Shown here in pieces: positions 8,055 through 33,542 of a stretch of 53,071 nt of DNA (position 1 is the first letter of the stretch; each line of letters starts with the position of its first letter). The DNA is from a virus (taxonomy: Duplodnaviria; Caudoviricetes): positions 1-53,071 of the IMG/VR virus record IMGVR_UViG_3300027811_000005; one strand, given 5' to 3'. The notes beneath the pieces were generated by a model. That model was given only the letters and a program-made list of their open reading frames with translations, was not told where the DNA came from and did no database searches. The translations under genes and the position numbers were made by a program.

Positions 8055-8233
8055 GAGGTTGCTACCAGTGGTCACATGTTTGGGTGCTAGGGCGTACCAT
8101 GTGGTCTCCGGTGCAACGAACCATGTGGACAGTGGTTGTTACAAGGGAATGGTACGCATTTTCTTGTAACAGTTATCCCCCTACCCTCTTCACTTGCACT
8201 GCCCCCCCCCACGATAACAGAATGGAGACGACG

Positions 8234-8383: not shown

Positions 8384-8387
8384 CAAG

Positions 8388-8747: not shown

Positions 8748-8808
8748 GTTGCTTACCCTTTGAATATAGCATCATGGCATGGGGGCAACCGCAAGGGTTG
8801 CTCCTACA

Positions 8809-15227: not shown

Positions 15228-16220
15228 ATGGACGAACAGGGGAATACACAATTGGTAGCATTTGACGCCGGGGCTGGCGCCGTGAAGGTGTGGACCGGAA
15301 CGGTCGGCGTGGAGATTCCCAGCCAGGTGGCGGTGGACGGTCAGCGGATGGCAACGGTGATGATGGGCCTGCGGAAGGCCAAGCCGCCGATGCAGATTGG
15401 GTTTGACGGCGGGGAATTTTTCGTCGGCCCGGGTGCGCACGACTGGGGTCGCGCTGTGGAGAACCTGGATTACGAGCGGTTGACGGGGACGCCAGAGATG
15501 CGTGCGCTGTTTTACGCGGCGCTGACGGGCCTGGTAGCCGGTGCTCAGACACTTAAACTGGCCGTGATCGTTGGGTTGCCGATCGAGGCGTTGGGGTCCG
15601 AGACGGTGACGGCGCTGAAGGCATGGATGCTCGTCCAGCATCATTGGGCGACGAATGATGTGAACTATTCCGCGACGGTGACGGATGTGCGCTGCACCAG
15701 TCAGCCGGTCGGCGCGCTGTTCGACTATCTGCTCGACGATGAGGGGAGCTTTATCGCCAACCGCGCGAGCGCGTTCAAGGGCGAGGCAGGAGTCATCAGC
15801 ATCGGTCACAGTACGGTGGAGCTCCTGGGCGTGCGCAATCGGACACCTGTGCAAAAGTGGACGCGGGGAACAACGCTGGGCGTTCAGCGACTCTTGGACA
15901 TTATCCGGGGCGATCAATCCTATACGCGCGGCGAATTGGATGAGCGGCTGCGCGCAGGTAAACTGGATGTTCGCAACGCTCTACCGGTATGGTGGAGCGA
16001 GATCGCTGGGCACCTGGATCACGAATGGGGCCGCGACTGGCGCAGGTTTGAGATTGTCATCGCCGTGGGCGGCGGGACGGTTTTGTTGCGCTCTCAGTTG
16101 GAGCACAAGTTTGGAACGAAGGTATTCATCCCGGAGCAGCCCGTGATGTCGGTTGCACGGGGACTGTGGAAGCTGGGGATGAGCCAGGTGAAGAAAACTG
16201 ACCGGGAGGTGACAAAATGA
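15228..16220 (+). CDS. ParM/StbA-family actin-like partition ATPase
   Basis: AFDAGAGAVK phosphate-1, IVGLP, SQPVGA, ISIGHSTVE phosphate-2, AVGGG, SVARGL. Confidence 0.9.
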   Translation: MDEQGNTQLVAFDAGAGAVKVWTGTVGVEIPSQVAVDGQRMATVMMGLRKAKPPMQIGFDGGEFFVGPGAHDWGRAVENLDYERLTGTPEMRALFYAALTGLVAGAQTLKLAVIVGLPIEALGSETVTALKAWMLVQHHWATNDVNYSATVTDVRCTSQPVGALFDYLLDDEGSFIANRASAFKGEAGVISIGHSTVELLGVRNRTPVQKWTRGTTLGVQRLLDIIRGDQSYTRGELDERLRAGKLDVRNALPVWWSEIAGHLDHEWGRDWRRFEIVIAVGGGTVLLRSQLEHKFGTKVFIPEQPVMSVARGLWKLGMSQVKKTDREVTK

Positions 16221-17742: not shown

Positions 17743-18152
17743 AGTCATTGGAGACAACGAAACCCTCGACGACCTGGATCGCGTTGAGTGTTGTTTTCTC
17801 TGCCGGGTTCGTCTGCGCGGTGTCAGTCATAAGCCCCGCAGCGCTGCGAGCAGTTCCGGCCTCTTCCGTTGTGATTGGTTTTTTGGTGGTATTGGTGATC
17901 GGTCTGGCAGCAGCAGCGGCGGGAGGGGTGGCGATCTGGCAATGGCAAGAACAGCGAACCAAGCAAGAGCGTTGGGAGCGGGCAACACAATTGTATGCGC
18001 TGGCGGCAGGCAAGCATGGAGAGGGACGAGGACAGGCTCGCCACATGGCTGCTCCTGGAAATCAGGGCACGGTATTGGCCTTGCCGGTGTTATCCGCGCA
18101 GGACGATGAAGACGAACCGGTGATGGTGTTTGGAAAGTGGGGGGCACCATGA
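17739..18152 (+). CDS. Membrane protein
   Basis: Two TM helices; ATGA overlaps at both ends. Confidence 0.65.
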   Translation: MKSLETTKPSTTWIALSVVFSAGFVCAVSVISPAALRAVPASSVVIGFLVVLVIGLAAAAAGGVAIWQWQEQRTKQERWERATQLYALAAGKHGEGRGQARHMAAPGNQGTVLALPVLSAQDDEDEPVMVFGKWGAP

Positions 18153-19264
18153 AGGCAAGCACGACTCTTTTAGCGATTCTGTCTGCATTGATTTTGACTG
18201 CAATGCTGGCTCTTTCGGCGTGCGATGTTCAAACGATACCACAGAGCATGGAGACAGTTGGCTCGGGCGCCGCTGAAACGAGCGCCGCGTATGCGGGGGG
18301 ACAACTTACCGTGCAGGCGGCATTGTACCGAGTGACGCTTGAGGCGCAGCAGGCACAGACCAATCGAGAGCAGCAAGCGCAGGCTGCGACGCAGACTGCG
18401 GCGCAAGTTATGCGGGCTTCCGAAGCAGAGCACAGAGCGTTACTGGCCACTGAATCTGCACAAGCGACCGAACGAACTTTGCGCGCAACGGAGGCAGCGG
18501 CACAACTCGCTGCAACTGAGCGGGCCTGGCAAGCAACGGTTCAGGCTCAAGCGACTGATCATGCTATCCAAGCAACCGCTACAGAGCGGGCCTGGCAAGC
18601 AACGGCAGTGGCCCAAGCGACCGATAGCAGTTTGAGAGCCACGGACCGCGCAGTCGCCATGACAGCAACCCGGACGGCTGCGCAAGCGACCGAGACGCGC
18701 CAGGCTGCACTAGCGACTGCGACGCGACAAGCCGAGGAACGCGGCGAAGCGATGGCTTCTTTGCGTGACTATGGTATTCCTCTCGTGCTGCTGGCATTGG
18801 CCGGTGGAATTATCGCCGCGATCATCGTTGGGGCACGCTGGATTGCCAAGCGGCCGGTTGTATTTCCGCGCAATCCATTGGGGGACGCGGATCCGGTCGG
18901 AGTTCCACAGGACGGCGGTGGCTATGCTTTTCTCGACATTGACCGGCAACCAGGGCCGGTTATCAAGGTATTGCCGAATGGAATCGTCGAAGCACCCTTG
19001 CTGCGCTCGGCAGATCAGGAGGAGCGGACTACGGCGCGGGATCAGGCTGTGGATGGGGTAAGCCGCCCAAGATTGGGATCAGGCAGCAAGAGCGAAACGC
19101 AAGCGATGCTGCCCATGTCACCTCCGCCTTATCCCCAGGTGCCGGGGTTGCGCAGTATTCGGATTTTGCGGCGGGGGGATCAAGCGGTACGAGCCGGAGC
19201 ATTGCCGCCTGCGCAGTGGGAGGCAATTCAAGCGGATTGGAACAGCGGGGTGGGAGATGAGTGA
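18149..19264 (+). CDS. Lipoprotein-like/membrane protein with A/T/Q-rich helical repeats
   Basis: LSAC lipobox-like, ATERAWQAT repeats, second TM helix. Confidence 0.7.
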   Translation: MKASTTLLAILSALILTAMLALSACDVQTIPQSMETVGSGAAETSAAYAGGQLTVQAALYRVTLEAQQAQTNREQQAQAATQTAAQVMRASEAEHRALLATESAQATERTLRATEAAAQLAATERAWQATVQAQATDHAIQATATERAWQATAVAQATDSSLRATDRAVAMTATRTAAQATETRQAALATATRQAEERGEAMASLRDYGIPLVLLALAGGIIAAIIVGARWIAKRPVVFPRNPLGDADPVGVPQDGGGYAFLDIDRQPGPVIKVLPNGIVEAPLLRSADQEERTTARDQAVDGVSRPRLGSGSKSETQAMLPMSPPPYPQVPGLRSIRILRRGDQAVRAGALPPAQWEAIQADWNSGVGDE

Positions 19265-20681
19265 CGAGATTGCTCATTACTGGAACGCTATTCTTGCCAC
19301 GCTTGAGCAACGCAGGCTGACGAATGAGCGGACTCGCCAGGGCGGAGTGATCGTGCCGGAAGCTGACGCTTACGTGCTACCCGACCGGGTTGTGTTCGTG
19401 TTGGATATGCAACGTCTGGCGGGAATCTCGCGCGAGACATGGCTCACACCTAATCTCTGGAAGCAGTTCGGGGCAGCGCTCCAGGGACGGAGAACGTTCG
19501 TATCCGACAGCGGCGGGCTGGCGATCACCGTGGCACGTGAACCGAGCGCAACGCTGGGCAAAAAGCTACCGGAGCGGATTCTGTTGTCCGAGGAGCACTT
19601 GCTTGACAAGCCGTACCAGGTGTGCCTGGGTTATACCACCCGTTATCCTGTGACGCTGGATATTGCCGGAGAGCACCGCGCGATTCTGATCGGAGGGACG
19701 AGCGGGGGCGGAAAGACGAACTTGATGCAGTCTATCATTCTGCAACTGGCAGCCAAGCATACGCCGGCGGAGGTTCAATTCGCCATCGTGGACACCAAGT
19801 TGGTTGACTTTGGCGAAGATTACGCCAGCCTACCTAATCTGTTAGCGGACATTGCGCACACGTTGGACGAGGCTGACCGGCTGATCGAGCAAGTGGAGGC
19901 CGAGCGCACACGCCGCCAGATGTTGATGGCGCAGGCGGGCGTGGCGCGATGGGAAAAGTATGCTGACCCTGAACCCTTGCCGTTGCTCGTGTTGATGGTG
20001 GACGAGGCGGCTGATTTCGCTCGCCGACCGGCAATGAGGACGTTGAAAGAGGTCGCCCGCAAGGGACGCGCGTTCGGGATCAGCGTGGTGGTCGGGACGC
20101 AACGGCCCTCGAACGACGTGATTGATGCGCAGGTGAAGGCAAATCTTCCTACGGCGATCTCGTTCCAGACCCGGTCGGACGTTGAGAGCCGGGTCATTCT
20201 TGGAGTGAGCGGCGCGGAGAAACTATGCCGGAGGGGCATGGCGCTGATGTTCGTGGGTGGGCGCTGGGAGACGGTGCAGACACTGCTTGTGGAAGACGGG
20301 GCGGCTCACCGGTTGATTCAAGAGCATGTGCAGGTTGAACACCCCGCGCTATCCGAGATCGAGCAGCAGTTGGTGGCGACAGCGGTGGATGAACTGGGCG
20401 GGGAGTTCAAGATCGTTGGACTGTATGCCAAATATCGAGGCAAGATCAGCAAGCGGGCACTGACAGCACTGGCAAAGCAGTGGGAGGCGCGGGGCTGGCT
20501 ATCGCACCGGGTTGATGCGACGACAGCACGGCGTGTCACCAATGAACTGATGCGTGTCACCAGTCGTGACACCAGTCGTGACACCAATTTGGGGGCCGTA
20601 TCACCGCCTGACACCCGTTTCACCGTATCACCAGATTTGGTGGAGACGGTAGGGGGCGGGACTGATAAGAATGAATTATGA
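19257..20681 (+). CDS. FtsK/SpoIIIE (TraB-like) DNA translocase
   Basis: GGTSGGGKT Walker A, IVDTK, LMVDEAAD Walker B, RKGRAFGI, GTQRP, GAEKL; possible C-terminal wHTH. Confidence 0.9.
   Translation: MSDEIAHYWNAILATLEQRRLTNERTRQGGVIVPEADAYVLPDRVVFVLDMQRLAGISRETWLTPNLWKQFGAALQGRRTFVSDSGGLAITVAREPSATLGKKLPERILLSEEHLLDKPYQVCLGYTTRYPVTLDIAGEHRAILIGGTSGGGKTNLMQSIILQLAAKHTPAEVQFAIVDTKLVDFGEDYASLPNLLADIAHTLDEADRLIEQVEAERTRRQMLMAQAGVARWEKYADPEPLPLLVLMVDEAADFARRPAMRTLKEVARKGRAFGISVVVGTQRPSNDVIDAQVKANLPTAISFQTRSDVESRVILGVSGAEKLCRRGMALMFVGGRWETVQTLLVEDGAAHRLIQEHVQVEHPALSEIEQQLVATAVDELGGEFKIVGLYAKYRGKISKRALTALAKQWEARGWLSHRVDATTARRVTNELMRVTSRDTSRDTNLGAVSPPDTRFTVSPDLVETVGGGTDKNEL
20533..20632 (+). repeat. 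Eight 8-mer direct repeats (GTRWCACC-like), clt/TRS-like
   Basis: GTGTCACC x2, GTGACACC x2, GTATCACC x2, CTGACACC, GTTTCACC at the 3' end of the FtsK gene. Confidence 0.7.
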
Positions 20682-20813
20682 GAGCGGGGGAACCAGAATG
20701 AAAAAAGGCGTACACAAGGTATTCAAGGTAGCTGACCTTTATTGCGGCGCCGCCGTGGATTGTCGCATGGCGCTGGCGTTGTGCGGGGCGGCGATTCGGA
20801 TGACGAGGGGTGC

Positions 20814-21359
20814 ATGATGGAACTGGAAAAAGCGAAAGGCATTGCGGATTACGTGGTCGAGTTGTTTTCGCCTTTCTGCGAGCGAGTTCAGACCGCGGGA
20901 AGTGTGCGGCGCGGGAAGGCTGAGGTGAAGGACATTGAGATCGTGGCAATCCCCCAACCATGCACGGACCTGTTCGGTGCGCCAGCATCAGGCGAAACCG
21001 AACTGGATGGGATGGTGCGCTTTATGGTTGAGCGGGGCGAACTGAGTTTGAGCAAGAATGGGCCGCGCTACAAGCAGGCAACGCTCAAAGCAGGGATCAA
21101 TCTGGACTTGTTTCTGGTGCTTCCGCCGGCGCAATGGGGGGTGATCTTGGCGATACGCACAGGCCCGGCGGATTTCAGTCATTGGCTGGTGACACCGCGC
21201 TGCAAAGGTGGGGCGTTGCCATCGAATTATCAAGTGCGCGACGGTGGAGTGTATCTGGATGGGGGTTTGATTGAGATGCCAGATGAGGCTGACTGGTTCA
21301 ACTTGCTCGGACTGGAATGGATGGAGCCAGGGAAACGTCGGGCGAATTGGCGCAAGTAA
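20814..21359 (+). CDS. Minimal DNA polymerase X (pol beta-like nucleotidyltransferase)
   Basis: AGSVRRGKAEVKDIEIV, LDLFLV, RTGPADFS; lacks lyase and PHP domains. Confidence 0.88.
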   Translation: MMELEKAKGIADYVVELFSPFCERVQTAGSVRRGKAEVKDIEIVAIPQPCTDLFGAPASGETELDGMVRFMVERGELSLSKNGPRYKQATLKAGINLDLFLVLPPAQWGVILAIRTGPADFSHWLVTPRCKGGALPSNYQVRDGGVYLDGGLIEMPDEADWFNLLGLEWMEPGKRRANWRK

Positions 21360-21368
21360 AGCGGGGGG

Positions 21369-22355
21369 ATGGGGATGTTTGCACAAGCACAAAGTCAACC
21401 GCCGAAATTACTGGATAGGGTACGTTCGGCAATTCGGATCAAGCATTATTCGTTGAAAACAGAACATTCGTATGTGCAGTGGGTTAGACGTTTTATCCTG
21501 TTTCATGGCAAGCGGCATCCCAGCGAAATGGGTGCTCAAGAGGTCGAGCAGTTTTTGACTCATCTGGCAGTTGAGCGGCATGTGAGTTCCAGCACCCAGA
21601 ACCAGGCTTTCTCAGCATTGCTGTTTATGTACCATGACGTACTTGGACTGGAGTTGAATAACGTGAACGCTATGCGTGCCAAGCGTTCAGTATACATTCC
21701 AACGGTTTTGACCGTTGTAGAAACGCGCAAAGTATTGAGCAACCTTGATGGTGTCTACAGCCTGATTGGGCAGATTCTCTACGGCGGTGGGTTGCGATTG
21801 ATGGAGTGTCTGCGGTTGCGTGTGAAGGATATTGATTTTGAACGGCGCACTCTCACGCTGAGAGATACGAAATCGTATCGAGATCGTGTGACGTGTTTGC
21901 CCGAAGCTGTCGTTGGGTCACTCAGGCTGCACTTGGCGAAGGTGCGCGCTCAATATGATATTGATTTGGCGAACGGAAGAGCGGATGTTGAGTTGCCCGG
22001 CGCGTTGGCACTCAAGTACCCTAATGCTGGAAAGGAATGGGCTTGGCAATATGTCTTTCCTGCGAGCAAGTTTTCAACTGATCCAAGGTCTGGGGCAGTT
22101 CGCCGTCATCATCTATATGAGACGAGCGTTCAAAAAGCCATCAGCAGGGCGGCAAAAGGGACTGGGATAGCTAAGTTGGTTGGGCCGCACACGCTGCGAC
22201 ATTCGTTTGCAACGCATTTGTTGGAAGCGGGTACTGACATTCGCACGATTCAGGAGTTGCTAGGGCATCGAGATTCGAAAACGACGATGATTTACACACA
22301 TGTTGCAAAGTGCGGCGCTGGGATCGTTTCGCCGCTGGATCGGGTTGGATATTAG
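21369..22355 (+). CDS. intI: Integron integrase
   Basis: [37 protein letters not shown]; IntI-specific insert [26 protein letters not shown]...DPRSG..RRHH; [21 protein letters not shown]. Confidence 0.97.
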
Positions 22356-22368
22356 ATACCCGCAGGGT

Positions 22369-22387
22369 GTCTAATAACGAGTTAGGT
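22369..22387 (+). other. attI-like site
   Basis: GTCTAAT-AACGA-GTTAGGT has the same geometry as the attI1 simple site (TAAA-N5-GTTRRRY); about 14 bp after the intI stop. Confidence 0.75.
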
Positions 22388-22393
22388 GCTTCC

Positions 22394-22615
22394 ATGATAA
22401 TTTGTGAAGTCTGCAAAACGAATCAACGCTACAAAAAGGTGTGGGAAAAATTTGGAAAGCGTGTCATCTGCATGATGTGCGGTCAGCGATACGCCTTTGC
22501 AAAGGACGGCTCTGCAGTTCTAAGAACGCACCTAACTCCCGTTGCAGTTGACGGCGCTGGTAGTACTGACATCGAAGCGAGCGCGGATAGCGACCGCGCC
22601 GCAACTGAACTCTGA
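22394..22615 (+). CDS. Cassette 1: small Zn-ribbon-like protein
   Basis: CEVC...CMMC; reads through attC1. Confidence 0.65.
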   Translation: MIICEVCKTNQRYKKVWEKFGKRVICMMCGQRYAFAKDGSAVLRTHLTPVAVDGAGSTDIEASADSDRAATEL

Positions 22616-22622
22616 GTTGGGC
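22530..22622 (+). other. attC1
   Basis: ACCTAAC...TTGCAGTTG...CAACTGAA...GTTGGGC; GCACCTAAC complements cassette start GTTAGGTGC. Confidence 0.9.
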
Positions 22623-22643
22623 GGACTGCCCAGAAAGGATGAA

Positions 22644-22949
22644 ATGATACACTATAGCGAAACAAAAATTGGTGACATTTTGAAAATCGTTGGGGCTGGC
22701 GCTCCTGGGTATGCTGCCCTGGGTGAACTTGTTCGCGTTGTCGAAGTTCATTCACAATCTGTGTTTGTTGAAAATCGAGACGGCGAGCGCATTGAATTCC
22801 TATTCAATTGCGGTGCGGCCCGTCTTGAGCCAACAGAGTGGACAAAAGATTTTCCCCCATCCGCCCAACTAGTCGTTGCAGTTGACGGCGCTGGTAGCAC
22901 TGACATTGAAGCAAGCGTGGATAGCGACCGCGCCGCAACTGAACTCTGA
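22644..22949 (+). CDS. Cassette 2: hypothetical protein
   Basis: AAGGA RBS; MIHYSETKIGD...; reads through attC2. Confidence 0.7.
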   Translation: MIHYSETKIGDILKIVGAGAPGYAALGELVRVVEVHSQSVFVENRDGERIEFLFNCGAARLEPTEWTKDFPPSAQLVVAVDGAGSTDIEASVDSDRAATEL

Positions 22950-22957
22950 CGTTAGGC
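22863..22957 (+). other. attC2
   Basis: GCCCAAC...GTTAGGC; near-identical to attC1; TCCGCCCAAC complements GTTGGGCGGA. Confidence 0.9.
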
Positions 22958-22971
22958 CGCAAGAGGTAAAC

Positions 22972-23268
22972 ATGGCTTCTTTGAATTTGAATCTCGAACC
23001 AACACAACGCGGATTTGTCCGCGCAGACTTCAATGATTTGTATGGCGCTTGGTGCTCGATTCAGGAAAGCTCACTGGCTACCGATGACGCTATCTGGCTC
23101 GGCCTCGATGAAGGCACTCATCATCATGTCACGGGCGAATGTATGGCACGTATGCACCTCAGCCGCGACCAGGTCGCAGAGTTGATTCCAGTGCTACAGT
23201 ATTTTGTAGAGAATGGTCACTTGCCATCTGGCGAGCGGCCTAACAAGGGCTTGGAGCCGACGCCCTAA
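22972..23268 (+). CDS. Cassette 3: conserved phage-type hypothetical protein
   Basis: GAGG RBS; TQRGF...DLYG..CSIQESSLAT..AIWLG...RMHL. Confidence 0.75.
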   Translation: MASLNLNLEPTQRGFVRADFNDLYGAWCSIQESSLATDDAIWLGLDEGTHHHVTGECMARMHLSRDQVAELIPVLQYFVENGHLPSGERPNKGLEPTP

Positions 23269-23329
23269 GCAGGCTCAATTACAATAACGATTCGCGGTCA
23301 CGGGCGCGACTCAAACCCGACCGTTAGGC
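23238..23329 (+). other. attC3
   Basis: GCCTAACAAGGGCTTGGAGCCGACGCC...GGCGCGACTCAAACCC..GTTAGGC; GCGGCCTAAC complements GTTAGGCCGC. Confidence 0.92.
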
Positions 23330-23354
23330 GGCAGCTTCGCCATAGTAGGTCAAG

Positions 23355-24170
23355 ATGAACATTTTCTTTGTTGGGTTGAATCCGAGATGGCAACAATTCA
23401 AATGGCTACCATACGGCCTAAACGTGATGTATTCTGCCGCAGGATTTTGGAGCGGGAATGGTTGGCGACGCAAGCGATACATCAAACACGCTGGGATACG
23501 CTGGCTTGACTGTGGCGGTTTCACGCTATTGAATCGTTACGGTGATTTTCCGTTCACGGTGGTAGCACTGATGAATCTTGTGGCGTTCCTAAATCCGCAC
23601 TACTACGCCAGCATGGATTACCCATGTGAGCCTGACATCTCGCGTAGGCTGGGGCTGATGAACAATGATGAGAGAATCCGCGCCACAGTCACAAACACGG
23701 TTGCGATGATTGAATGGGAGAGCCAAGTTGGCGGCCAGCTTGTGCCAGTGATCCAGGGCTACACACTGGACGAGTACAGAAAATGCGTTGACCTACATCA
23801 CCAGAAAGGAACTATCCGGGAGTACATGGCTGTTGGCTCAATGTGCCGCCGTATCTCTGACGCAGAGTTGCACAATCTCATACCAGGAATAGCGACCCAC
23901 GCGCGGCAGGCGGGGGTGTGACGGTTGCACTTCTTTGGTTTGAAACTCTCTGAATCGTTACGCGATCTGTCAGAGTTCATCTGGTCACGTGATAGCGCGG
24001 TCGCACTCGATGACTATGATTCAGAGTTACGCGCTGGGCGTGGCGGTCGCCGCTGGCCGGTAGGCCAGTCGGAAAAGCGGCAATCGTTCGATGTGTTTTT
24101 CAACAGACTAAATTGTCTCGGTCTGCGCTACACGCTGCCGTCTAACAAGGGCTTGGAGCCGACGCCCTGA
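23355..24170 (+). pseudogene. Cassette 4: TGT/DpdA-like (deazaguanine transglycosylase-like) gene with in-frame TGA at 23919-23921
   Basis: WLDCGGF, SMDYPCEP, PVIQG, AVGSMCRR, then in frame after the stop RLHFFGLK and SRDS (TGT barrel motifs). Confidence 0.75.
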
Positions 24171-24231
24171 GCAGGCTCAATTACAATGACGACTCGCAGT
24201 CACGGGCGCGGCTCAAGCCCGGACGTTAGAA
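24140..24231 (+). other. attC4
   Basis: GTCTAACAAGGGCTTGGAGCC...GGCTCAAGCCC..GTTAGAA; near-identical to attC3. Confidence 0.92.
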
Positions 24232-24242
24232 GGCGAGGAAAA

Positions 24243-24488
24243 ATGAGCGGTATTATAAAAACTTGGTGTCCAGATTGCAGGCGTGAAGTTCTGAATGTGC
24301 GTCCATATCTGCAAGACGGCGACGAATTCATTTGCGGGCTTTGCAATCAAAGGTTCGTAGTTCGCTTTGAACGCCTTTTAACTCATGTTGCAGTCGATGC
24401 AGCTTACTGCGAGTGCTCTGAGTATGTTCCTGCTTTTCTTATCAGCGGCGCACCGTGCACCAACTGTGGAAAATCACAGCGCGGCTGA
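24243..24488 (+). CDS. Cassette 5: Cys-rich Zn-ribbon protein
   Basis: GAGG RBS; CPDC, CGLC, CEC, CTNC. Confidence 0.7.
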   Translation: MSGIIKTWCPDCRREVLNVRPYLQDGDEFICGLCNQRFVVRFERLLTHVAVDAAYCECSEYVPAFLISGAPCTNCGKSQRG

Positions 24489-24504
24489 ATCGCAGACGTT
24501 AGAC
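24376..24504 (+). other. attC5
   Basis: TTTTAAC...TTGCAGTCG...CGGCTGAA...GTTAGAC; CGCCTTTTAAC vs cassette start GTTAGAAGGCG (one mismatch). Confidence 0.8.
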
Positions 24505-24515
24505 GGAAAGCTAGA

Positions 24516-25430
24516 ATGTCAGAACGCGCGAGGTTCTACAACGATGATAGTCTGCTGGTCATGGCGACATTTGCAGAAGGTTTATTCGATGCGATTGTTA
24601 CCGATCCGCCTTATGAAGTCAATTTGAACAAGACGCGCTGTGCTTGGGACAGATGGCCCGAACCTGAGACATGGAAACAGATGTATCGCGTTATAAAACC
24701 CGGCGGGTTGCTGGCATTTACCATTGCGCCGCATGTGGCACACCTGCGCGTGCCAGATGTCTTTTCCGCCGGTTGGGAATTGCTAGAAGTTGGCTTTTGG
24801 GTGTGGGGCAATGGGCGTCCAGTTCGCCAAGACCGCCTAAAAAGGTGTTTTGACTTGGTGTACTTTTGTGGCAAGGGAATGCGCAGCCTATTCACGAATG
24901 ATGCTCGTATGGCGAATCGAGCGAACGCCATTACTGGTAGGCGCGGAAAGGTGACTGCACGCGCTGGTGGTTTGGGGTCTCAATTTCACGATTGCAAACA
25001 CTCACGCTCCTACGAGTGCGCACAAGACGACTATCATCCTGCGAACGTCGCCTGCTCTCAGGATGATGCGCCATTTGAAAAGACAGGCTACGAGTTACTT
25101 TTCGCGGTCAAGCGATTGCTACCAGTTGGAAAGGCGCACACCAAACACCCAACGAAAAAGCCGCTCGACCTGATAGGGCAAATCATCAAGTTGGTAAGCC
25201 GCGAGGGCGACACAGTTTTTGACCCGTTCATGGGTGACGGTACGACTGGCGAGTCGTCGTTGATTCTCAATCGCTCATTTGTCGGGATAGAGGCAGTGCC
25301 AGAGTATTTTGAGCGCGCAAAGAAGAACATCACCGGTGTCGAGGCGCAATTGCACTTGCCCGCTTTCCGTCTAACAAGCGGTTCCAGCCGACGCGCTTCG
25401 CTTGCCGATGTGCAAGATGAGTTGCTATAG
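24516..25430 (+). CDS. Cassette 6: N6-A/N4-C DNA methyltransferase (beta class)
   Basis: IVTDPPY, HPTKKP, VFDPFMGDGTT, FVGIE. Confidence 0.93.
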   Translation: MSERARFYNDDSLLVMATFAEGLFDAIVTDPPYEVNLNKTRCAWDRWPEPETWKQMYRVIKPGGLLAFTIAPHVAHLRVPDVFSAGWELLEVGFWVWGNGRPVRQDRLKRCFDLVYFCGKGMRSLFTNDARMANRANAITGRRGKVTARAGGLGSQFHDCKHSRSYECAQDDYHPANVACSQDDAPFEKTGYELLFAVKRLLPVGKAHTKHPTKKPLDLIGQIIKLVSREGDTVFDPFMGDGTTGESSLILNRSFVGIEAVPEYFERAKKNITGVEAQLHLPAFRLTSGSSRRASLADVQDELL

Positions 25431-25495
25431 ATTAGTGTCTCGCGGTTCGTCGCGCATGGCCTGTGACGCGCGCGGATGAACCGCAGACATTATAT
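25369..25495 (+). other. attC6 (R' degenerate, ATT instead of GTT)
   Basis: GCTTTCCGTCTAAC is the exact complement of start GTTAGACGGAAAGC; GCGGTTCCAGCCG...CGGATGAACCGC stem. Confidence 0.8.
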
Positions 25496-25598
25496 ACCGT
25501 GTGAGTTAAACGCGGAATTTTCCTAAAGAGGTTAGTACCGATTTTGCCGGTCTGGGGCAGGGTGGGGAGTGACGGGAATTTCTTCATCGGAGTAGACA

Positions 25599-28500
25599 AT
25601 GTCAGTATTTGACGAGATCAAGGACAAACTGAGGATCGAGGATGTGATTGGCGAGACGGTGACGCTCAAGATGAGCGGGCACAGCATGACGGGGTTCTGC
25701 CCGTTTCACGACAATCACAATACGCCGGCGCTGGCTGTGTGGCCCGAGACGCAGACGTGGAAGTGCTTTGCCGGGTGCGGCAGCGGGGACGTGTTCGACT
25801 GGGCAGAAAAGCGCGATGGGATGGACAAGCGCGGGGTGCTCAAGCTGCTGGCGCGCAAGGCGGGGGTGGAATTGACGCTTGCCACGCCGGAGCAATTGAA
25901 GGCGCAGGAGAAGCGAAAGGAAGCGACGCTGGTGGCGCAGGTTGCGGCCGCGTTCTTTCGGAAGCGAATGACGGAGGCGGCTGGCGCGCCTGGCGTGGAA
26001 TATGCCAGGAGCCGTGGCTGGGCCAGCGATACGTTGAAGGGGTTGGGGTATTTTGGGAAGGATTGGGACGGGCTGAAAAAGCACATGGCAGAGGCAGGCG
26101 TTGATCTGGAGTGTTCGGCGGCTGTGGCGCTGGTTGGGTATCGCGGCGATGTGGCGGCGTGGGGGAAGCGTTGGGGCGTGCGTGTGACTGATGAGGAGAT
26201 CAAGGAGGGGAAGATCCACGCGATGCCGCCAGAGATGCTGATGTATTGCCATGTGGAGGGGCGGAGTGTGGTGTATGTGAGCGGGAGGAGATTGCCCTCA
26301 TCCCCAACCCTTCTCCCCCTGGGGGAAGGGGGTATGCCCAAGTCGTGGAATCCGCCGGCGCGGCTGTTTGGGGAGAGGCAGCCATATTTCAATGCGTGTT
26401 TCAAGCATGGCAAGCCGGTGTTGATTGTGGAGGGCCAGGGGGATGCCAAGACGCTGGAAGAGTGGAAGTTGCCGGGGATTGCGTTGGCTGGGTGCGGGAC
26501 TGATAACGCTTTGTTATCGGTGCTGAAAAAGTGCGGGCAGGTGACGGTTGCGCTCGATCACGACCGGGCCGGGGAGTATGCTGCGACGGGGTTGATTCCC
26601 TACGGGACTGAGCCGCAGCCTTTCACGGAGCGGGTGAAGCGAAGCCTGTGCTGGAAGTTGGTCGAGGCCGGATTGCCCGCGACGAAGGTGAAGGTCTTGA
26701 CGTGGCCGCGCGAGGAGGGGAAGGATAAGGCCGATGCGAACGATTGCCTGAAGGCAGGCATGACGGGGGAGCAGGTCGGGGCGCTGGTGAAGGGAGCCGA
26801 ATCATTCCTGGATGTGATGCTGGGGTTCTCTTCCGATGATGGGAAGGACGAGGCAGAGCGGGACGAGGCGCGGATGATGGTGTTCGAGTTGCTGGCCGAT
26901 GTGGATGCGCGCTGGGTGATCGCGCGAAAGAAGCAACTCGCCAAGCAGCTCGATTACGATTCGGATACGTTCGAGCGCATGTTGATGGAGGCTCGGAAGC
27001 GGGCGGGGCAGGATGAGACGGGCCGCCCGATGTATGGCGTGTCCGGAGGACGGATGGTTCACAACAATTTCGACCGGATGGGGAATCCCTACGAGCAGAC
27101 GTTGCTCAACGGGGTGTTGAACATTACGGGCGACCTGGTGCTGGACGACGGGGAGAAACAAATGCGCCGATTCACGATAGAGTTCACGCGGGAGAACGGC
27201 GCCAAGTTCCAGCCGACCGAGGTTGACGTGGAGGATTACGCTCCTTTGAATTGGCTCTATTCTGCCTGGGGCGTGAATGCGATCGTGCCGGCTGGGCAGA
27301 GCGTGAAAGAGCACCTGCGAGTGGCGATGCTAACGCTTTCCAAGAACGTCGAGACGCTGCACCGGTATCAACACACGGGCTACCACAATATTGACGGACG
27401 GATGGTGTATCTGACGACGGTGGGCGCCGTTGGACGGGATGGGGTGCAGGTTGAGATCGAGCGGGCGGCGGACCGGTACCGGCTGCCGAGCAAGCCTGAA
27501 AACGTGGTCGAGGCGGCCAAGGCAAGTTTCAGGAGCCTGGGCGCTGGGAACCTGTACATCACGGTCCCACTGTTTTCAACCATGTACCTCGCGCCGCTCT
27601 CTTCTATTCTGGAGCCTGCGTTTTCAGTGTGGCTGTATGGGACAACTGAAACCTACAAGAGCGCCATCACGGCGCTGATGATGTGTCACTATGGCCGCTT
27701 CCTCTACAACACCCCGCCCGGATCATGGAGCGGGAGCACGGAGGTTGGCTTGCGTGTGATGGCGTTCATGCTCAAGGACATGCCGTTCTGGATTGACGAC
27801 TTTACGGCGCAGGCGACGGAGCGCGGAGACGACAACTTGCACGACCGGGCCGGGCGGGTGTTGCGGGATTGGGCCAACCGGACCGGCGGGCTGAAGGGGA
27901 CGGCGGAGGGGGGATTACGCAAGGTTCACAAGCCGCGCGGGATCGTGGTCAACAGCGCAGAGATCTTGCCGTCCGTGCGCTCGATCCGGTCAAGGCTACT
28001 GATGCTGGAAATGCAAAAGGGGTTTGTGAACCTGGACGACATTTTGGAGCGGTACAAGAACAGCGAGGTTGATCTATATCCTCACGCGATGGCAGCATAC
28101 GTACTCTGGGTAGGGGATCACTATGCCGAGTTGGAGAAAAGCCTCCCGCTTCGGCGCGATCAACTGGTGGCAGAGTGCAGAAACCAGAAAGGGGACTCGC
28201 GCGAATACAACCACGTGGCTACGGAGATGGTGGCCTTTGAACTGGCGACGCGATGGATGAATGAGATCGGGGCGATTGATACCATTGAAGCGAGCGCGAT
28301 GGTGAAATTCGCGTTCGATATGATGATGGCGGCAGCAGACGAGCAGACGGTTGACACACAGGTGGACGAGAACCCGGTCAACAAGTTTATGAATGAGCTG
28401 GAGCAGATGCTGGCGGATGGGACGGCGTTCGTCCGCCACGCAGATACTCCGAATGAAGAGACTCGCTCATTGCCGGAATCGGGACAACGGTCAGTGAATG

Positions 28501-28793
28501 CGCGGTTCATCGGTTGGTACGACAGCCTTTATTGGTATTTGCTCGACTCTGCAACAGAACTAGTCATAACTCGCGTCAACCGCCGCAAGGGGACGCTGGG
28601 GACAAACCCACGTGGACTGATGCGGCAACTGCGAGATATTGGACTGTTGCACCCTGACAATGACGACAGGTTTACCTATAGGTTTTCAGGAGTAGCTACA
28701 AAGCCGAGAGTACACAGAATCGTCAGGAGCAACGTGGGGGAGCCTTCTCCAGATAGCGGGATTGCCGGGTATGCCGGGAATGACGGGAATTAG
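25599..28793 (+). CDS. DNA primase-helicase (CHC2 Zn finger + TOPRIM + helicase-like domain)
   Basis: CPFHDNHNTP...WKCFAGCG, IVEGQGD, ALDHDRAG, DAND; P-loop-like LYGTTETYKS and WIDDF. Confidence 0.9.
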   Translation: MSVFDEIKDKLRIEDVIGETVTLKMSGHSMTGFCPFHDNHNTPALAVWPETQTWKCFAGCGSGDVFDWAEKRDGMDKRGVLKLLARKAGVELTLATPEQLKAQEKRKEATLVAQVAAAFFRKRMTEAAGAPGVEYARSRGWASDTLKGLGYFGKDWDGLKKHMAEAGVDLECSAAVALVGYRGDVAAWGKRWGVRVTDEEIKEGKIHAMPPEMLMYCHVEGRSVVYVSGRRLPSSPTLLPLGEGGMPKSWNPPARLFGERQPYFNACFKHGKPVLIVEGQGDAKTLEEWKLPGIALAGCGTDNALLSVLKKCGQVTVALDHDRAGEYAATGLIPYGTEPQPFTERVKRSLCWKLVEAGLPATKVKVLTWPREEGKDKADANDCLKAGMTGEQVGALVKGAESFLDVMLGFSSDDGKDEAERDEARMMVFELLADVDARWVIARKKQLAKQLDYDSDTFERMLMEARKRAGQDETGRPMYGVSGGRMVHNNFDRMGNPYEQTLLNGVLNITGDLVLDDGEKQMRRFTIEFTRENGAKFQPTEVDVEDYAPLNWLYSAWGVNAIVPAGQSVKEHLRVAMLTLSKNVETLHRYQHTGYHNIDGRMVYLTTVGAVGRDGVQVEIERAADRYRLPSKPENVVEAAKASFRSLGAGNLYITVPLFSTMYLAPLSSILEPAFSVWLYGTTETYKSAITALMMCHYGRFLYNTPPGSWSGSTEVGLRVMAFMLKDMPFWIDDFTAQATERGDDNLHDRAGRVLRDWANRTGGLKGTAEGGLRKVHKPRGIVVNSAEILPSVRSIRSRLLMLEMQKGFVNLDDILERYKNSEVDLYPHAMAAYVLWVGDHYAELEKSLPLRRDQLVAECRNQKGDSREYNHVATEMVAFELATRWMNEIGAIDTIEASAMVKFAFDMMMAAADEQTVDTQVDENPVNKFMNELEQMLADGTAFVRHADTPNEETRSLPESGQRSVNARFIGWYDSLYWYLLDSATELVITRVNRRKGTLGTNPRGLMRQLRDIGLLHPDNDDRFTYRFSGVATKPRVHRIVRSNVGEPSPDSGIAGYAGNDGN

Positions 28794-28850
28794 TGCAGTA
28801 AGTGTTTATATTCTGTGACCGGTATTCCCGGCAAACCCGGCAAACCCACT
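28756..28850. repeat. Putative replication origin: 9-bp repeats in opposing orientation
   Basis: GCGGGATTG/CCGGGTATG/CCGGGAATG/ACGGGAATT, an AT-rich spacer, then TTCCCGGCAAACCCGGCAAACCC. Confidence 0.55.
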
Positions 28851-28980
28851 TGTAGAATAGAGGGTGCCCGGGCATGTTCCAAAACATGGTATGCAAATAG
28901 AATGATTTTGTTGTTACAAGAGAATGGAAAGCATTTTGTTGTAACAGGTATATCAGAAATCTCGAGTTTGGAGGAAAGCC

Positions 28981-29388
28981 ATGATGAACAATGATGTAGG
29001 TGTAGAAGTGCAGGTGCGCGAGGAGTCTGTTACCAGATTTATGCAGTTGTTGGATTTGTTGCTTTCGGATGGGACGGCATTTGTGAGACATGCCGATGCG
29101 CCGATAGATGACACGCAAGCCATGCCTGAAATTGACAAGCGGACCGCGAATAGTGTGTTCATTGGCTGGTATGACAATTTGTACTGGTACCTGCTGGACG
29201 CGGCGGAGGAGATGATTTATATGCGAGCCAACAAGTTGTGCCAGCCTATCGGGATTTCTGGGCATGAATTGAAGACCGAATTGCGGAATCGCAAAATTCT
29301 GTACGCTGACAGGGAAGATCGGTTCACATACAGGTTTTCCAGGATGACTTCTAGGCCACGTGTGCTACGCATTGCCAGGTTGGGATAG
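28981..29388 (+). CDS. Stand-alone paralog of the primase-helicase C-terminal domain
   Basis: DGTAFVRHAD, FIGWYD.LYWYLLD and DRFTYRFS shared with the last ~125 aa of the upstream gene. Confidence 0.85.
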   Translation: MMNNDVGVEVQVREESVTRFMQLLDLLLSDGTAFVRHADAPIDDTQAMPEIDKRTANSVFIGWYDNLYWYLLDAAEEMIYMRANKLCQPIGISGHELKTELRNRKILYADREDRFTYRFSRMTSRPRVLRIARLG

Positions 29389-29433
29389 TATGTGGACCAT
29401 ATTGTGTTGGGAAACCACGTAGGGGAGGGAAGA

Positions 29434-29691
29434 ATGATTCAAGAGGTTAGCTTGGTTGAGACGCTGAAGGCGGTTGAGGCTGTTGGGTCATTGGTGCCGG
29501 GGCACGACGAGGGTGATCTTCGGGATGCAATCGTGATCGTGTCAGGGAAGGTGTCGAAGTTGAAGCGGTTGCAGAATTGGAAGAATCCGCCGTGCTGGAC
29601 GATGAAGGAGATGTGGGCGGCTGATTTGGTTCTGCGCTCGTTTGGGGTGGTGCTGGTTGGGAAGGACGGCGGCCGTGGTGGGGCAGGGTAG
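29434..29691 (+). CDS. Hypothetical protein
   Basis: GGAGG RBS before ATG 29434. Confidence 0.55.
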   Translation: MIQEVSLVETLKAVEAVGSLVPGHDEGDLRDAIVIVSGKVSKLKRLQNWKNPPCWTMKEMWAADLVLRSFGVVLVGKDGGRGGAG

Positions 29692-29909
29692 GGAGGCAAG
29701 GTTGATCAATGTTGGCAAGGAGGGGCAAGGGCCCCTTGCCCCTACGGGATGTAAACGGTTGCCGCTATGGGATGGACGGCAGTGGTGGGATGGGCGCGAC
29801 ATTGCGGTGTGGTGTGCTGATCTGAATGAGTTTTTGACACAACACGGGCTGAGGACTGTTTCCAGTCTCGACCCGGAGGGGAGCGGGTTCAAGGTGGAGG
29901 TTGGGCCAG

Positions 29910-30266
29910 ATGTCAAAGCGGTTGGAGGATCGGGAGAAGATTGTGGCGGAAGTGATGAAGTTGCGAAAGGCGGGGCTGTTGTTTCCAGAGATCGGGAAGA
30001 GGCTGGGGATTCACAAGGAGACGGCCCGGTATCTGTTCAAGCGAGGGTTTCCCCACTCGATTCGGACTGCGAAACCGGATAGGGAAAAGTTGCCTCTTAT
30101 GACGATGGCGGGGACGTTGTGGAATTGGCCACCCATCCGGCCGCATGGTTCGGTTGATGGAAACTTGTGCGCGGCGTGTGGTGTGGTGAACGAGTGCCGA
30201 GCGAGCGTGGACCAGGGCGGATTTGTGGGATGCGAAAGGCCGCTGGAGCGGGAGATGATGCGGTGA
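29910..30266 (+). CDS. HTH protein with C-terminal Cys cluster
   Basis: LRKAGLLFPEIGKRLGIHKETAR; CAAC...C...C. Confidence 0.65.
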   Translation: MSKRLEDREKIVAEVMKLRKAGLLFPEIGKRLGIHKETARYLFKRGFPHSIRTAKPDREKLPLMTMAGTLWNWPPIRPHGSVDGNLCAACGVVNECRASVDQGGFVGCERPLEREMMR

Positions 30267-31325: not shown

Positions 31326-31988
31326 TCATCCAGACTCCTTGCCTGCCTCCCACGCCTCAGAAAATTCACGACTAGCAAACATCTCTGCAAGGCCACTGAT
31401 TTGCTTCAAACGTAATACCTCGTCTGGATCAAGCCCCAATTCGCGCGCAATCCATTCATCCGAATGATTCCGGCGCGACAACTCGACAACTATCTCGCTC
31501 ATGCCTTGCACTAGATGTTTGCCGCGCGCACGATTGTGCCTGATGGTGGACGCGATTCTGTCTGATCTATCCTCTCTCCATGTGTTGATGGTTGTTACTG
31601 GCAAATATCCGAGCGTGCGTTTTCGTATCGCCTTACATTCCTTACCGATGCGGGTGCGGTGAAAGCCATCTACGACCTCGCGGTGACCATCTACCAGCCA
31701 TGTAACGACGGGTTGTGTGTAACCATCCTCTTTTACGCTCAATTCCAGCAGTCGCATCTCCGGCGGCGCGACCTGATTAGGGTTATAGTCATTAGCCTCC
31801 ACCGCATCAGACAGAACCCACAACACGCAATCTACCGGCTCATCTTTGAGTGGGCTGACGGCATGGAGAGCGATTTTGATCTCGTTGATAACTTCAATGC
31901 GTTCGTCGTTTGGCAATCCAGCGATTTCCTCACACAACGATTTTGCCTGCTCAATGACATTGTTTCCGATTAGGGTAAGATTCCCCAT
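31326..31988 (-). CDS. ibrB: IbrB-like ParB/Srx-domain protein
   Basis: EPVDCVLWV, ANDYNPNQVAPPEMRLL, DGYTQPVV, VVDGFHR, STIRHNRARGKH. Confidence 0.9.
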   Translation of the reverse strand: MGNLTLIGNNVIEQAKSLCEEIAGLPNDERIEVINEIKIALHAVSPLKDEPVDCVLWVLSDAVEANDYNPNQVAPPEMRLLELSVKEDGYTQPVVTWLVDGHREVVDGFHRTRIGKECKAIRKRTLGYLPVTTINTWREDRSDRIASTIRHNRARGKHLVQGMSEIVVELSRRNHSDEWIARELGLDPDEVLRLKQISGLAEMFASREFSEAWEAGKESG

Positions 31989-33190
31989 GCCGACCTCCGA
32001 TTTCTCATGATCTTTAGGTAGCGCTCGTATGCCTGTGATTTGTGCTGGCTGAAGGATAAGCCTTTGCACCAGTAGTCGTTACGCAAAAGTGCCTTGCAGA
32101 TACGCCGCCAACTCGGAACTGTTTTTTGAGCCTCGGCCTCGACGTCAGCTTCGTCGGGTATCGTCGGGTGCCCATGTTCTTGCCACCAATGTATGAACAC
32201 AGCGATTTTGTTGGTGAAATGTTCCTTTGTTTGTGGCGGAAGGCTCTCTAGCAGGAGCATAGCGAACGATTGCCATGTGTGTCCTTCCGGTTTCGTGATT
32301 TTCAGACGACCAAGGATGTTGCCAGATTCTTGGGCGTAGAGCGCGCCACTGTTGGCTCCGTTCACACGAGCCACTACACGCGCCCACGTCTCTGGCTCGA
32401 TCAGGTGAAATAGCCATAACCCTTTTCGCTGATCGTCCCCATAGGGCTGGCAGATACGAGCCTGGTGAATCGTCAATCCGGCCTGGTACATCAAGTCGTA
32501 GAGATGATTGTAGGGCTTGCCGGTCTTGCCGTGATAGGTCCAGATGTCCTCGGTTGACCAATCATAGATAGGGTAAATGTTCCACAAGGTCGGATCGTCA
32601 CCATCCTCGCGGACGCAGTTAGTCCATCCACGACCGCCGAATTTGACGCCATGCCCAGCGATGGTGCGCCAGCGATTCAGGCTCTCTGCTGTGCGAATTC
32701 CAACCATGCAGGCTGTCAACTGTCCCTGACCATACCAAAATCCGAACTTTGGCACAAACTCCTCGAATTCCATTGCATAGGTGTAGAACGGGAAAAATGA
32801 TGGATCGGTGATGGCGATGTCTGGGGGTTGCCTGATCCAGTCGGTTTCTCGTCCAGGTTCCCATGCGATCCAGTGATGCTCATACATGCTGACAGCGTTG
32901 CGCAGATGGATCGGCAGACATTCCCAGTAAGGTTCAATATTGTCACGGTACAGATCGAGCACCTCCAAAATGTGGTCAATGGTGAGTTTATACTGCCCTT
33001 CCAAATCCAGAAATAGAACGCCGACCTTGCGCCCGCGCGGGATTGCCTCATCCATCGCCATGTGCAACATCACAGTAGAGTCTTTCCCGCCGGAAAATGA
33101 GACGTAGACACGCGGGAATGTGTCGAATGTCCACGAGATACGTTGACGGGTTGCTTCGTACACGCTCATTCCAAGCATTCGTTTAGGCAT
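31970..33190 (-). CDS. ibrA: IbrA-like PAPS-reductase-domain/DUF3440 protein
   Basis: SFSGGKDS PP-loop, GIRTAESLNR, YPIYDW, RICQPYGDDQR, SWRRICK.LL.NDYWC. Confidence 0.92.
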   Translation of the reverse strand: MPKRMLGMSVYEATRQRISWTFDTFPRVYVSFSGGKDSTVMLHMAMDEAIPRGRKVGVLFLDLEGQYKLTIDHILEVLDLYRDNIEPYWECLPIHLRNAVSMYEHHWIAWEPGRETDWIRQPPDIAITDPSFFPFYTYAMEFEEFVPKFGFWYGQGQLTACMVGIRTAESLNRWRTIAGHGVKFGGRGWTNCVREDGDDPTLWNIYPIYDWSTEDIWTYHGKTGKPYNHLYDLMYQAGLTIHQARICQPYGDDQRKGLWLFHLIEPETWARVVARVNGANSGALYAQESGNILGRLKITKPEGHTWQSFAMLLLESLPPQTKEHFTNKIAVFIHWWQEHGHPTIPDEADVEAEAQKTVPSWRRICKALLRNDYWCKGLSFSQHKSQAYERYLKIMRNRRSAWGILP

Positions 33191-33542
33191 CGTTATCCTC
33201 TTGGATTGAACCATCCGGGGCGACGGTAATACGTCTCGTCCGCATCACGCCCAACTCAACGCACTCTCTGATTTCATATCGCCCAGGCTCAAGCGTGTAC
33301 CAATCGTACACGCCACGAGCGCCAAGCTTTTGAGCATGACTATAGTCTTTCATCATGCGCGGGATGGGAGTGCGACCATTTTGCTCCAGGCATGTTACGG
33401 ATGGGTAGTAACGCACTTGTCCATATTTCATCGCCCGGCACATCTCGCGGACTTGGATATTCTTGATCTTGCCGCGATCAAGCGCGTGCATGTAGGCGTG
33501 ACAATCATCACCAACGACTTCGAGTTTGATGATCGCATTCAT
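33183..33542 (-). CDS. Hypothetical protein
   Basis: Overlapping operon with ibrA; DYS.A...GARGVY motif. Confidence 0.65.
   Translation of the reverse strand: MNAIIKLEVVGDDCHAYMHALDRGKIKNIQVREMCRAMKYGQVRYYPSVTCLEQNGRTPIPRMMKDYSHAQKLGARGVYDWYTLEPGRYEIRECVELGVMRTRRITVAPDGSIQEDNDA

Follow-up and report, generated by a model that had tools for sequence, protein, structure and literature searches.

Integrons are bacterial gene-capture devices, and the origin of their cassettes is a long-standing question. Here we describe an integron in the genome of a virus of the class Caudoviricetes (IMG/VR record IMGVR_UViG_3300027811_000005), which was analysed over its whole length of 53,071 nucleotides (nt) and is called the window in the following. 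The open reading frames (ORFs) of all six cassettes of this integron run past R'', the box with which the recombination site attC begins. Judged from sequence comparisons, such reading into attC appears to be the rule in the phage group to which the window belongs and to be rare in related bacterial arrays. We think it fairly probable that the resulting C-terminal tails are mostly by-products of a tight packing of cassettes in the replication module of a one-directional phage operon, in which attC is melted by translation.

The array occupies positions 22382-25489 (3108 nt), is 90% coding, and has 5' leaders of 12-31 nt. R'' and R' were placed by pattern, and attC is counted from R'' to R'. 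Sites were found with a rule-based finder, which searches the bottom strand for two cores that, each set off by a spacer, enclose a loop and its 14-bp L stem with two bulged bases, and with a covariance model (R1) that was built from attC1-4 of the window and 13 sites from related loci. The cassettes and their sites are:

22382-22616, plus strand: cassette 1, 235 nt, with ORF1 (22394-22615), a 73-residue zinc ribbon whose TGA abuts R'
22617-22951, plus strand: cassette 2, 335 nt, with ORF2 (22644-22949), 101 residues
22952-23323, plus strand: cassette 3, 372 nt, with ORF3 (22972-23268), 98 residues, phrog_3849, TAA after L''
23324-24225, plus strand: cassette 4, 902 nt, with ORF4, a DpdA-like gene (23355-24170) with an in-frame TGA at 23919-23921
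24226-24498, plus strand: cassette 5, 273 nt, with ORF5 (24243-24488), an 81-residue zinc ribbon
24499-25489, plus strand: cassette 6, 991 nt, with ORF6, an N6/N4 DNA methyltransferase gene (24516-25430), 304 residues
22530-22622, plus strand: attC1
22863-22957, plus strand: attC2
23238-23329, plus strand: attC3
24140-24231, plus strand: attC4
24376-24504, plus strand: attC5, hybrid and non-canonical
25369-25495, plus strand: attC6, with a degenerate R'

An earlier note, made from the letters of this DNA, had stated that none of the six ORFs stops in R''. Indeed none stops in or before it, and the stops lie 31-113 nt into attC. Counted from the first base of R'' to the last base of the stop codon and set against the length of the site, the offsets in cassettes 1 to 6 are +86 of 93, +87 of 95, +31 of 92, +31 of 92, +113 of 129 and +62 of 127 nt. 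A TAA is present in one frame of five of the six R'' cores and is used by none of the ORFs; in attC2, R'' reads GCCCAAC, with CAA at the place of the usual TAA. The tail peptides quoted in the note are all present, namely VAVDGAGSTDIEAS(A/V)DSDRAATEL as the shared tail of cassettes 1 and 2, NKGLEPTP in cassettes 3 and 4, and CEC...CTNC encoded in cassette 5.

In the frame as called, homologues or family matches exist for all ORFs but one. ORF6 matches Pfam PF01555 (N6_N4_Mtase) with 100.4 bits (gathering cut-off 26.7) over residues 25-270 and phrog_67 over residues 4-283. ORF4 reaches 51.1 bits with Pfam PF23859 (DpdA, gathering cut-off 27) over residues 45-214, only across the in-frame TGA read as X. 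This TGA is codon 189, just before the HFFG motif, and it leaves the DpdA-like gene without an intact frame, which could reflect a pseudogene, a sequencing error or recoding. For ORF5, no relative was found in viral contigs or by a word-based protein search, and it only has pairwise matches to ORF1 and to protein P0177. The latter carries a full tail of the attC1/2 type, and its alignment with ORF5 ends at VAVDxA, which is the end of L''.

Where protein homology ends is informative for the origin of the tails. It ends 1-3 residues before R'' in ORF1, ORF2 and ORF3, as seen in alignments, and in ORF6, as seen in profile matches. ORF2 has a family of 240 relatives, which are mostly 72-80 residues long and span about 70% of its sequence; among 29 that were aligned, conservation ends with EWxxDFP at residue 71, and R'' begins at residue 74. 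The 54 relatives of ORF3 are conserved up to ...GxLP at residue 85, with R'' at residue 89, and the 19 relatives of ORF1 (E <= 1e-3) match residues 3 to about 44-45, with R'' at residue 46. In ORF6, where R'' lies at residue 285, the matches extend to residue 270 (Pfam) and residue 283 (PHROG). As the family homology ends just before R'' in these cases, attC supplies both the tail and the stop in four of the six cassettes (ORF1, ORF2, ORF3 and ORF6). Comparison with homologues outside cassettes, which the earlier note had proposed as a check, likewise supports this. In other viral contigs, attC is missing after the stop of eleven ORF2 homologues (finder with at least 12 of 14 L pairs). Ten of them have their own stop 2-17 residues past the conserved motif, one is longer, and the next gene follows 1-25 nt behind. 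An AlphaFold model of ORF2 has block means of the predicted local distance difference test of 76-91 in the core and of 44-57 from residue 71 on, with no secondary structure past residue 76. P0002, a relative of ORF2 with 89% identity, has no TGA before R' and is two codons longer (...ATELCR), so that the stop supplied by attC is itself variable.

A survey of related arrays, also suggested in the note, was made on loci with relatives of the window's integron integrase, IntI, of which 67 were fetched from viral contigs and 80 from bacterial genomes. The search with model R1 covered 50/68 viral loci plus the window and all 80 bacterial loci; hits with E <= 1e-3 were kept (R1 E-values are rough, as the calibration was short), identical attC sequences were dropped, and the window was left out of the counts. 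For each attC, the longest ORF of at least 50 residues was taken whose stop fell no more than 150 nt ahead of R'' and no more than 60 nt past R'. The positions of the stops were:

Viral, 56 unique attCs: beyond R'' 36, past attC 1, in R'' 5, before R'' 12, no ORF 2
Bacterial, 78 unique attCs: beyond R'' 13, past attC 2, in R'' 7, before R'' 53, no ORF 3

ORFs thus pass R'' at 37 of 54 viral and 15 of 75 bacterial sites (odds ratio 8.7, p = 3e-8). The viral figure is conservative, because two of the viral calls before R'' are intI itself and not the ORF of a first cassette. The overlap is hence not as frequent in bacterial arrays, where 60 of 75 ORFs end in or before R'', in keeping with the note's statement of the usual arrangement. 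Median stop offsets are +61.5 nt (viral) and -13 nt (bacterial), and at least 80% of attC is translated according to the ORF calls in 20/54 viral and 8/75 bacterial cases. When attC lies on the intI strand, 32 of 41 viral and 3 of 17 bacterial ORFs pass R''; for attC on the opposite strand these numbers are 5/13 and 12/58. Loci in which over half of the ORFs pass R'' amount to 12 of 14 in the viral set (attC on the intI strand) versus 2 of 30 in the bacterial set. The independent rule-based finder gave 24/33 viral and 8/39 bacterial ORFs past R''. The chance that six of six ORFs run past R'', as in the window, is 6e-5 at the bacterial rate and 0.10 at the rate of the phage group.

The element that carries these cassettes has the parts of an integron. 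Directly upstream of the array lie:

21369-22355, plus strand: intI, integron integrase, 328 residues, TIGR02249 (integrase_gron), on the same strand as the cassettes
22356-22387, plus strand: putative attI, from the intI stop to the first GTTAGGT, with the crossover G/TT (the slash marks the crossover) at 22381/22382

IntI is recognised by the integron-specific profile TIGR02249 with 428.6 bits (cut-off 265) over residues 14-326, and it is also matched by Pfam Phage_integrase and Phage_int_SAM_4. The G/TT joints of the cassettes are at 22381, 22616, 22951, 23323, 24225 and 24498, and a degenerate A/TT core lies at 25489. In the 53 kb, on both strands, the rule-based finder detected exactly four sites with all 14 L pairs, and these are attC1-4. 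They have 14/14 L pairs, 6-7 of 7 R pairs (6/7 in attC1) and the bulged bases C and T, and score 71.5, 79.7, 71.8 and 73.5 bits with R1, respectively. When folded as bottom-strand DNA and compared with shuffled sequences, attC1, attC2 and attC4 gave z-scores of -3.9, -2.0 and -4.9, and attC3 a weaker -1.16; as RNA, attC1-4 and attC6 fold with -36 to -60 kcal/mol. In addition, the start of each cassette is complementary to the flank of its own R'', perfectly over 8, 9, 9 and 13 nt in cassettes 1, 2, 3 and 6, and with one mismatch each in cassette 4 (11 of 12 positions) and cassette 5 (9 of 10 positions). This is the pattern expected of units that have passed through a circular form. From the IntI profile, the architecture of attC1-4 and the complementarity of the cassette starts, we take the integron of the window to be genuine.

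The last two sites deviate. In attC5, the R''-L'' half resembles attC1/2 (repeat family D4) and the L'-R' half resembles attC4/6 (repeat family D5). It forms about 10 of 14 L pairs by hand, its fold is no better than that of shuffled sequences (z = +0.69 as DNA and -0.06 as RNA), and it lacks the features of a canonical attC and was missed by both the rule-based finder and R1. It is thus a hybrid and poorly pairing site and is predicted to be defective. attC6 has 13 of 14 L pairs (by hand) and folds as RNA with -60.3 kcal/mol (z = -3.98), and its R' is ATTATAT in place of GTTRRRY. At its end an A replaces the crossover G, and a second core-like GTTAAAC is found 16 nt further on (25489-25511). 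This GTTAAAC lies within a small hairpin that is followed by a T-rich run, giving a terminator-like site at 25497-25515. The near-identical pairs that the note had described are attC1/2, with 95% identity over 76 nt, and attC3/4, with 88% over 98 nt; the 5' halves of attC3/4 and attC6 are similar as well (84% over 31 nt). The whole array is made of two attC types and one hybrid.

A GTT core lies at or over the intI stop codon in the window and in 15 related viral loci (L001-L004, L006-L009, L011, L028, L032-L035 and L046), and a motif before the core is shared by several of them. In several of these loci this motif is GAG/TTRRRY, and a TGA or TAA is followed by GTTAGGC at once or within about 10 nt; TGA/GTTAGGC is the sequence at the intI stop in several related viral loci. 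The ATG of the first cassette follows 12-70 nt past the attI-like motif in most of them. The stretch 22356-22387 may function as attI and, given this placement of the GTT core, intI, the putative attI and the cassettes look like one tight, operon-like unit. A scan with the sigma-70 consensus over 19000-26500 gave four sites, all on the minus strand, versus 4.3 expected by chance, and this consensus may not suit the host. The array is probably transcribed by read-through from the upstream phage genes, which run in one direction.

The window is a complete viral record, with a CheckV completeness of 100% and the IMG/VR class linear. Pfam matches identify phage genes for a tape-measure protein, a Dit-like tail protein, a terminase, an SPP1-type portal and a capsid protein, and the record also encodes a ParM-like protein, an FtsK-like ATPase and a 1064-residue primase. 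Phage genes on the same strand lie on both sides of the array, and the integron has the FtsK-like and PolX-like genes on one side and the primase gene on the other. The unit of intI, putative attI and cassettes therefore lies inside a viral genome and is a phage-borne integron. Further genes of relevance are:

25599-28793, plus strand: phage primase gene, just 3' of the array (Pfam Zn_ribbon_DnaG, TIGR01391, primase PHROGs)
15228-16220: ParM-like actin gene
6885-7850, minus strand, and 12036-13463: two further tyrosine recombinase genes
31970-33214, minus strand: gene for a PAPS-reductase and DUF3440 protein, encoded on the opposite strand

The ParM-like gene and the two extra tyrosine recombinases suggest a temperate or plasmid-like lifestyle. 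The PAPS-reductase/DUF3440 domain pair is known from IbrA-like phage proteins. A megablast search of 18000-30000 against the phage collection gave no match.

Primase homologues near a related intI were found in seven viral loci (L001, L002, L003, L004, L008, L032 and L035), which except L035 also have a ParM-like gene; L001 has a PolX-like gene as well. An FtsK-like or PolX-like gene is common to four more loci (L028, L033, L034 and L055). The cassettes of these loci are otherwise unlike those of the window, and the IntI proteins of the related phages are 57-66% identical. Among the 50,697 records of an isolate-phage collection, relatives of IntI are present in nine. These are the four phages of Qi et al. 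(five records), one Salmonella record with the class 1 intI1, two fragments, and KX853513 (Virus Rctr41k, locus L165). The latter contains at 4680-10100 an integron that lies on one strand, with an IntI that bears the annotation 'xerD integrase-like protein', six attCs that R1 detects downstream of this gene, a methyltransferase-like coding sequence among the attCs and another just after the last one. The coding sequences given by the depositors end +53, +71, +6 and +113 nt after R'', and two end 146-149 nt before it; by class, three of the six end beyond R'', one in R'' and two before. This integron was previously unrecognised, and its phage is not one of the four that Qi et al. 2023 list in their Table 1.

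How could such overlaps arise and what would they do? In the explanation that we favour, the cassettes are packed to the limit, and a stop ahead of R'' was lost from their ORFs or never present. The ORFs therefore run into attC and end at the first in-frame stop there, which may fall within the loop, within L' or between L' and R'. The tails encoded by attC would then mostly be unselected appendages that replace short, non-conserved native C-termini. Pressure on the size of the packaged genome may remove spacers and native stops and thereby save packaged DNA. Ribosomes that enter the 5' arm would also keep stable attC hairpins from forming in the mRNA, and this melting may limit polarity for the cassettes further on and for the primase gene, which agrees with the experiments of PMC11511950 discussed below. 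A fusion at the birth of the cassette and a later deletion are both compatible with the data.

Beyond supplying C-termini and stops, the dual-coding role that the earlier note gave to attC would predict tails shaped as coding sequence. The first part of that claim stands on the homology of ORF1, ORF2, ORF3 and ORF6, and the second is not seen for tails generally, as judged by stop density and frames. Stop codons are not depleted in the 56 viral attCs (3.14 per 100 nt on the top strand versus 3.08 on the bottom strand), and the frames in which viral ORFs enter R'' are near uniform (12:21:17). The frame has no link to T at position 4 of R'', which would be a sign of selection to remove the TAA (p = 0.5), and the longest open frame is not preferred (18/47, p = 0.28). 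In the window it is used in four of six sites, with a binomial probability of about 0.10 by hand, the two attC pairs not being independent. The reading frame differs between the similar 5' halves of attC3/4 and attC6, and so do the peptides. In the tail VAVDGAG...SDRAATEL, the invariant residues fall at the L'' and L' stems and the variable ones at the loop. No coding adaptation was thus seen in attC sequences in general.

Several observations weigh against the view that the tails are by-products. The frame with the earliest stop is under-used among viral attCs on the intI strand (5/37 versus an expected third, p = 0.006), and it is over-used in bacterial arrays (14/27; Fisher p = 0.002 versus viral). 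All five distinct DNA copies of the attC1/2 type (attC1 and attC2 of the window, L164:1759, L164:4977 and L162) are read in the one frame that is open to the TGA before R', with p = 0.004 if they are independent, and attC1 and attC2 differ at four positions, three of which are synonymous. Of the 27 ORF-frame translations of long viral-array attCs (110 nt or more), five contain the strict motif CxxC-x(5-30)-CxxC; at the same sites it occurs in 0/69 other top-strand and 0/96 bottom-strand frames, and in 22 long bacterial attCs it occurs in 0/132 frame translations. As to the survey, the ORF calls are naive, R1 was seeded mainly from this phage group, the terms 'viral' and 'bacterial' are taken over from the source collections, and neither the cassettes within a locus nor related arrays are independent. 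The public runs listed with this stretch are two DNA runs of one soil-metagenome sample, which may both be the source sample of the record, and no RNA run is among them.

The five sites with the zinc-ribbon motif are 116-155 nt long (L007:3551-3678, L028:12024-12139, L035:11166-11320, and KX853513 at 8686-8813 and 9971-10099). One of the loops fits Zn_ribbon_RanBP with E = 0.01 and another DZR with E = 0.004, both below the Pfam cut-offs, and one has the spacing W-x-C-x2-C-x3-N-x6-C-x2-C, which is that of the RanBP2 type. The CEC...CTNC of the window (24376-24504) is a looser member of this set. A minority of the long attCs in this phage group thus probably carries real coding sequence, in the form of zinc-ribbon motifs, in the loops. 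The tail of the attC1/2 type follows five or more different N-terminal parts (ORF1; ORF2 with P0002; P0177 with L164:1759; P0186; L162; L164:4977). Elsewhere, this type has only three matching metagenome contigs, and the genes that it follows are unrelated. One copy, L164:4977-5107, is 131 nt long with about 36 extra loop bases, in which the same frame stays open, and the tail ends ...VAVDGAGPSNIEALRHSIQDEDDETQSANDRAATEL.

If the tails were instead selected parts of the proteins, attC would be strongly dual-coding and would provide a functional C-terminal module such as a tag, a zinc ribbon or a degron. The zinc-ribbon motifs in ORF frames and their absence from the control frames, the two loops close to the RanBP and DZR models (although below the Pfam cut-offs), the reuse of VAVDGAG...SDRAATEL behind different N-terminal parts and the five copies in the one open frame all speak for this. 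However, the invariant residues of that tail are those encoded by the L'' and L' stems, so that structure alone accounts for their conservation, and copies that were found by protein searches are biased to the translated frame. The stop codons that persist in attC, the different peptides from the similar halves of attC3/4 and attC6, and the low confidence of the ORF2 tail in the model also argue against selected tails. The CEC...CTNC of the window is without a homologue in viral contigs and in the word-based search, and it lies in a defective hybrid site. We therefore consider it unlikely that the tails are in general selected. An origin of the fusions as scars of cassette making, in which attC was grafted locally on or into the 3' end of packed phage genes, seems to us rather doubtful. 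The native stop and tail would then have been cut off at the birth of the cassette, and ORF2 is indeed from an ordinary family of phage genes, in which non-cassette members have the next gene close behind. R'' stands 1-3 residues past the end of each conserved domain, two attC types in near-identical pairs serve the whole array, and the attC1/2 type is rare elsewhere and behind unrelated genes. Homogeneous attCs are taken to imply local cassette genesis; the link of the overlap to cassette genesis and the local creation of cassettes, both raised in the earlier note, do not conflict with the data. But neither an intermediate nor a donor locus was found, selection on genome size could have produced the same pattern through later deletions, and attCs would also be homogeneous if the cassettes came from a shared source. 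This idea also gives no sharp prediction.

It is very improbable that the whole arrangement is an artefact, be it from a bacterial integron that was fused to a phage during assembly or from wrongly called ORFs. The Logan contigs of both runs break at identical 29-mers in attC1 (22586-22614) and attC2 (22920-22948), which leaves cassette 2 as a separate piece of 363 nt whose position rests on 29-nt overlaps, and both runs are possibly from the source sample. However, contigs bridge from intI to cassette 1 and from cassette 3 to past cassette 6 without differences, and the depth of the three pieces is similar (18.5, 16.9 and 23). An alternative order of cassettes was not found in the contigs of the two runs, which only show the breaks at attC1/2 and short pieces of other attCs. 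The phage genes on both sides of the array have its strand, at least nine other viral contigs have the same backbone genes beside a related intI, and the family matches of five of the six ORFs are in the called frame. We thus retain the view that the tails are mostly by-products of tight packing, with the minority of zinc-ribbon loops as described above. A broader picture that we entertain only tentatively is that of soil phages, possibly phage-plasmids, which hold an integron in their replication operon, with a putative attI that overlaps the intI stop, and in which attC is a translated element, fused in frame to the cassette genes and supplying their tails and stops. The loops of long attCs would encode zinc ribbons, a passage of ribosomes through the hairpins would be selected, as suggested by the under-use of the frame with the earliest stop, and the cassettes would be built locally from phage genes.

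If this were true, phages would have their own platform for gene shuffling. The phage group has a working-looking integron in a replication operon, and its cargo, judged by the DNA methyltransferase and the DpdA-like gene, fits DNA modification and perhaps counter-defence. It would be a compact natural system for the control of an array by translation through attC, for loops that encode domains and for the grafting of attC onto gene ends. The contrast between about 70-80% of phage-array ORFs that read into attC and about 20% in bacteria can be checked. In the literature searched, from which most subscription journals and supplements were outside, no report of a systematic translation of attC turned up.

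With the promoterless single-gene cassettes of class 1 resistance integrons, the cassettes described here share the hairpin-forming attC at the end and the G/TT joining. An excerpt of PMC11511950 states that attC overlaps the stop codon in most resistance cassettes, that the next cassette is expressed less when untranslated stretches precede attC, and that extending translation into attC raised its expression about 2-fold; as far as an excerpt of PMC2674596 describes it, the ACID database allowed an overlap of at most 15 bp. Unlike in those cassettes, the overlap here is 31-113 nt and not a few bases. A translation across the recombination site that helps the next cassette has been described for ORF-11 in attI1 and for short ORFs in attC, with the core site supplying the stop (PMC8876359, in part). 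Those are separate leader ORFs, whereas here the cassette gene itself is read through the site. Inverted integrons, in which intI has the same orientation as attC, are known from the Treponema group (PMC4889954, in the part available), and an excerpt of PMC7691350 uses the term 'reverse integron'. The window likewise has intI and the cassettes on one strand, but it is phage-borne and has a putative attI at or over the intI stop, and in bacterial same-strand arrays only 3 of 17 ORFs pass R''. Sedentary chromosomal integrons, such as those with the Vibrio repeats, also have near-identical copies of attC, whereas here a small array with two types and one hybrid lies in a 53-kb virus. The phage integrons of Qi et al. 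2023 (PMC9892861) are, in the portion of that paper available, three complete integrons in 10,705 genomes, which temperate phages carry as pieces of integrons of the host chromosome or of class 1, and methyltransferase cassettes were noted in phages there. They have in common with the window that parts of an integron are found within phage genomes; as far as that portion goes, they differ from it in that here the integron is located in the replication module, in an arrangement that is common to related viral contigs.

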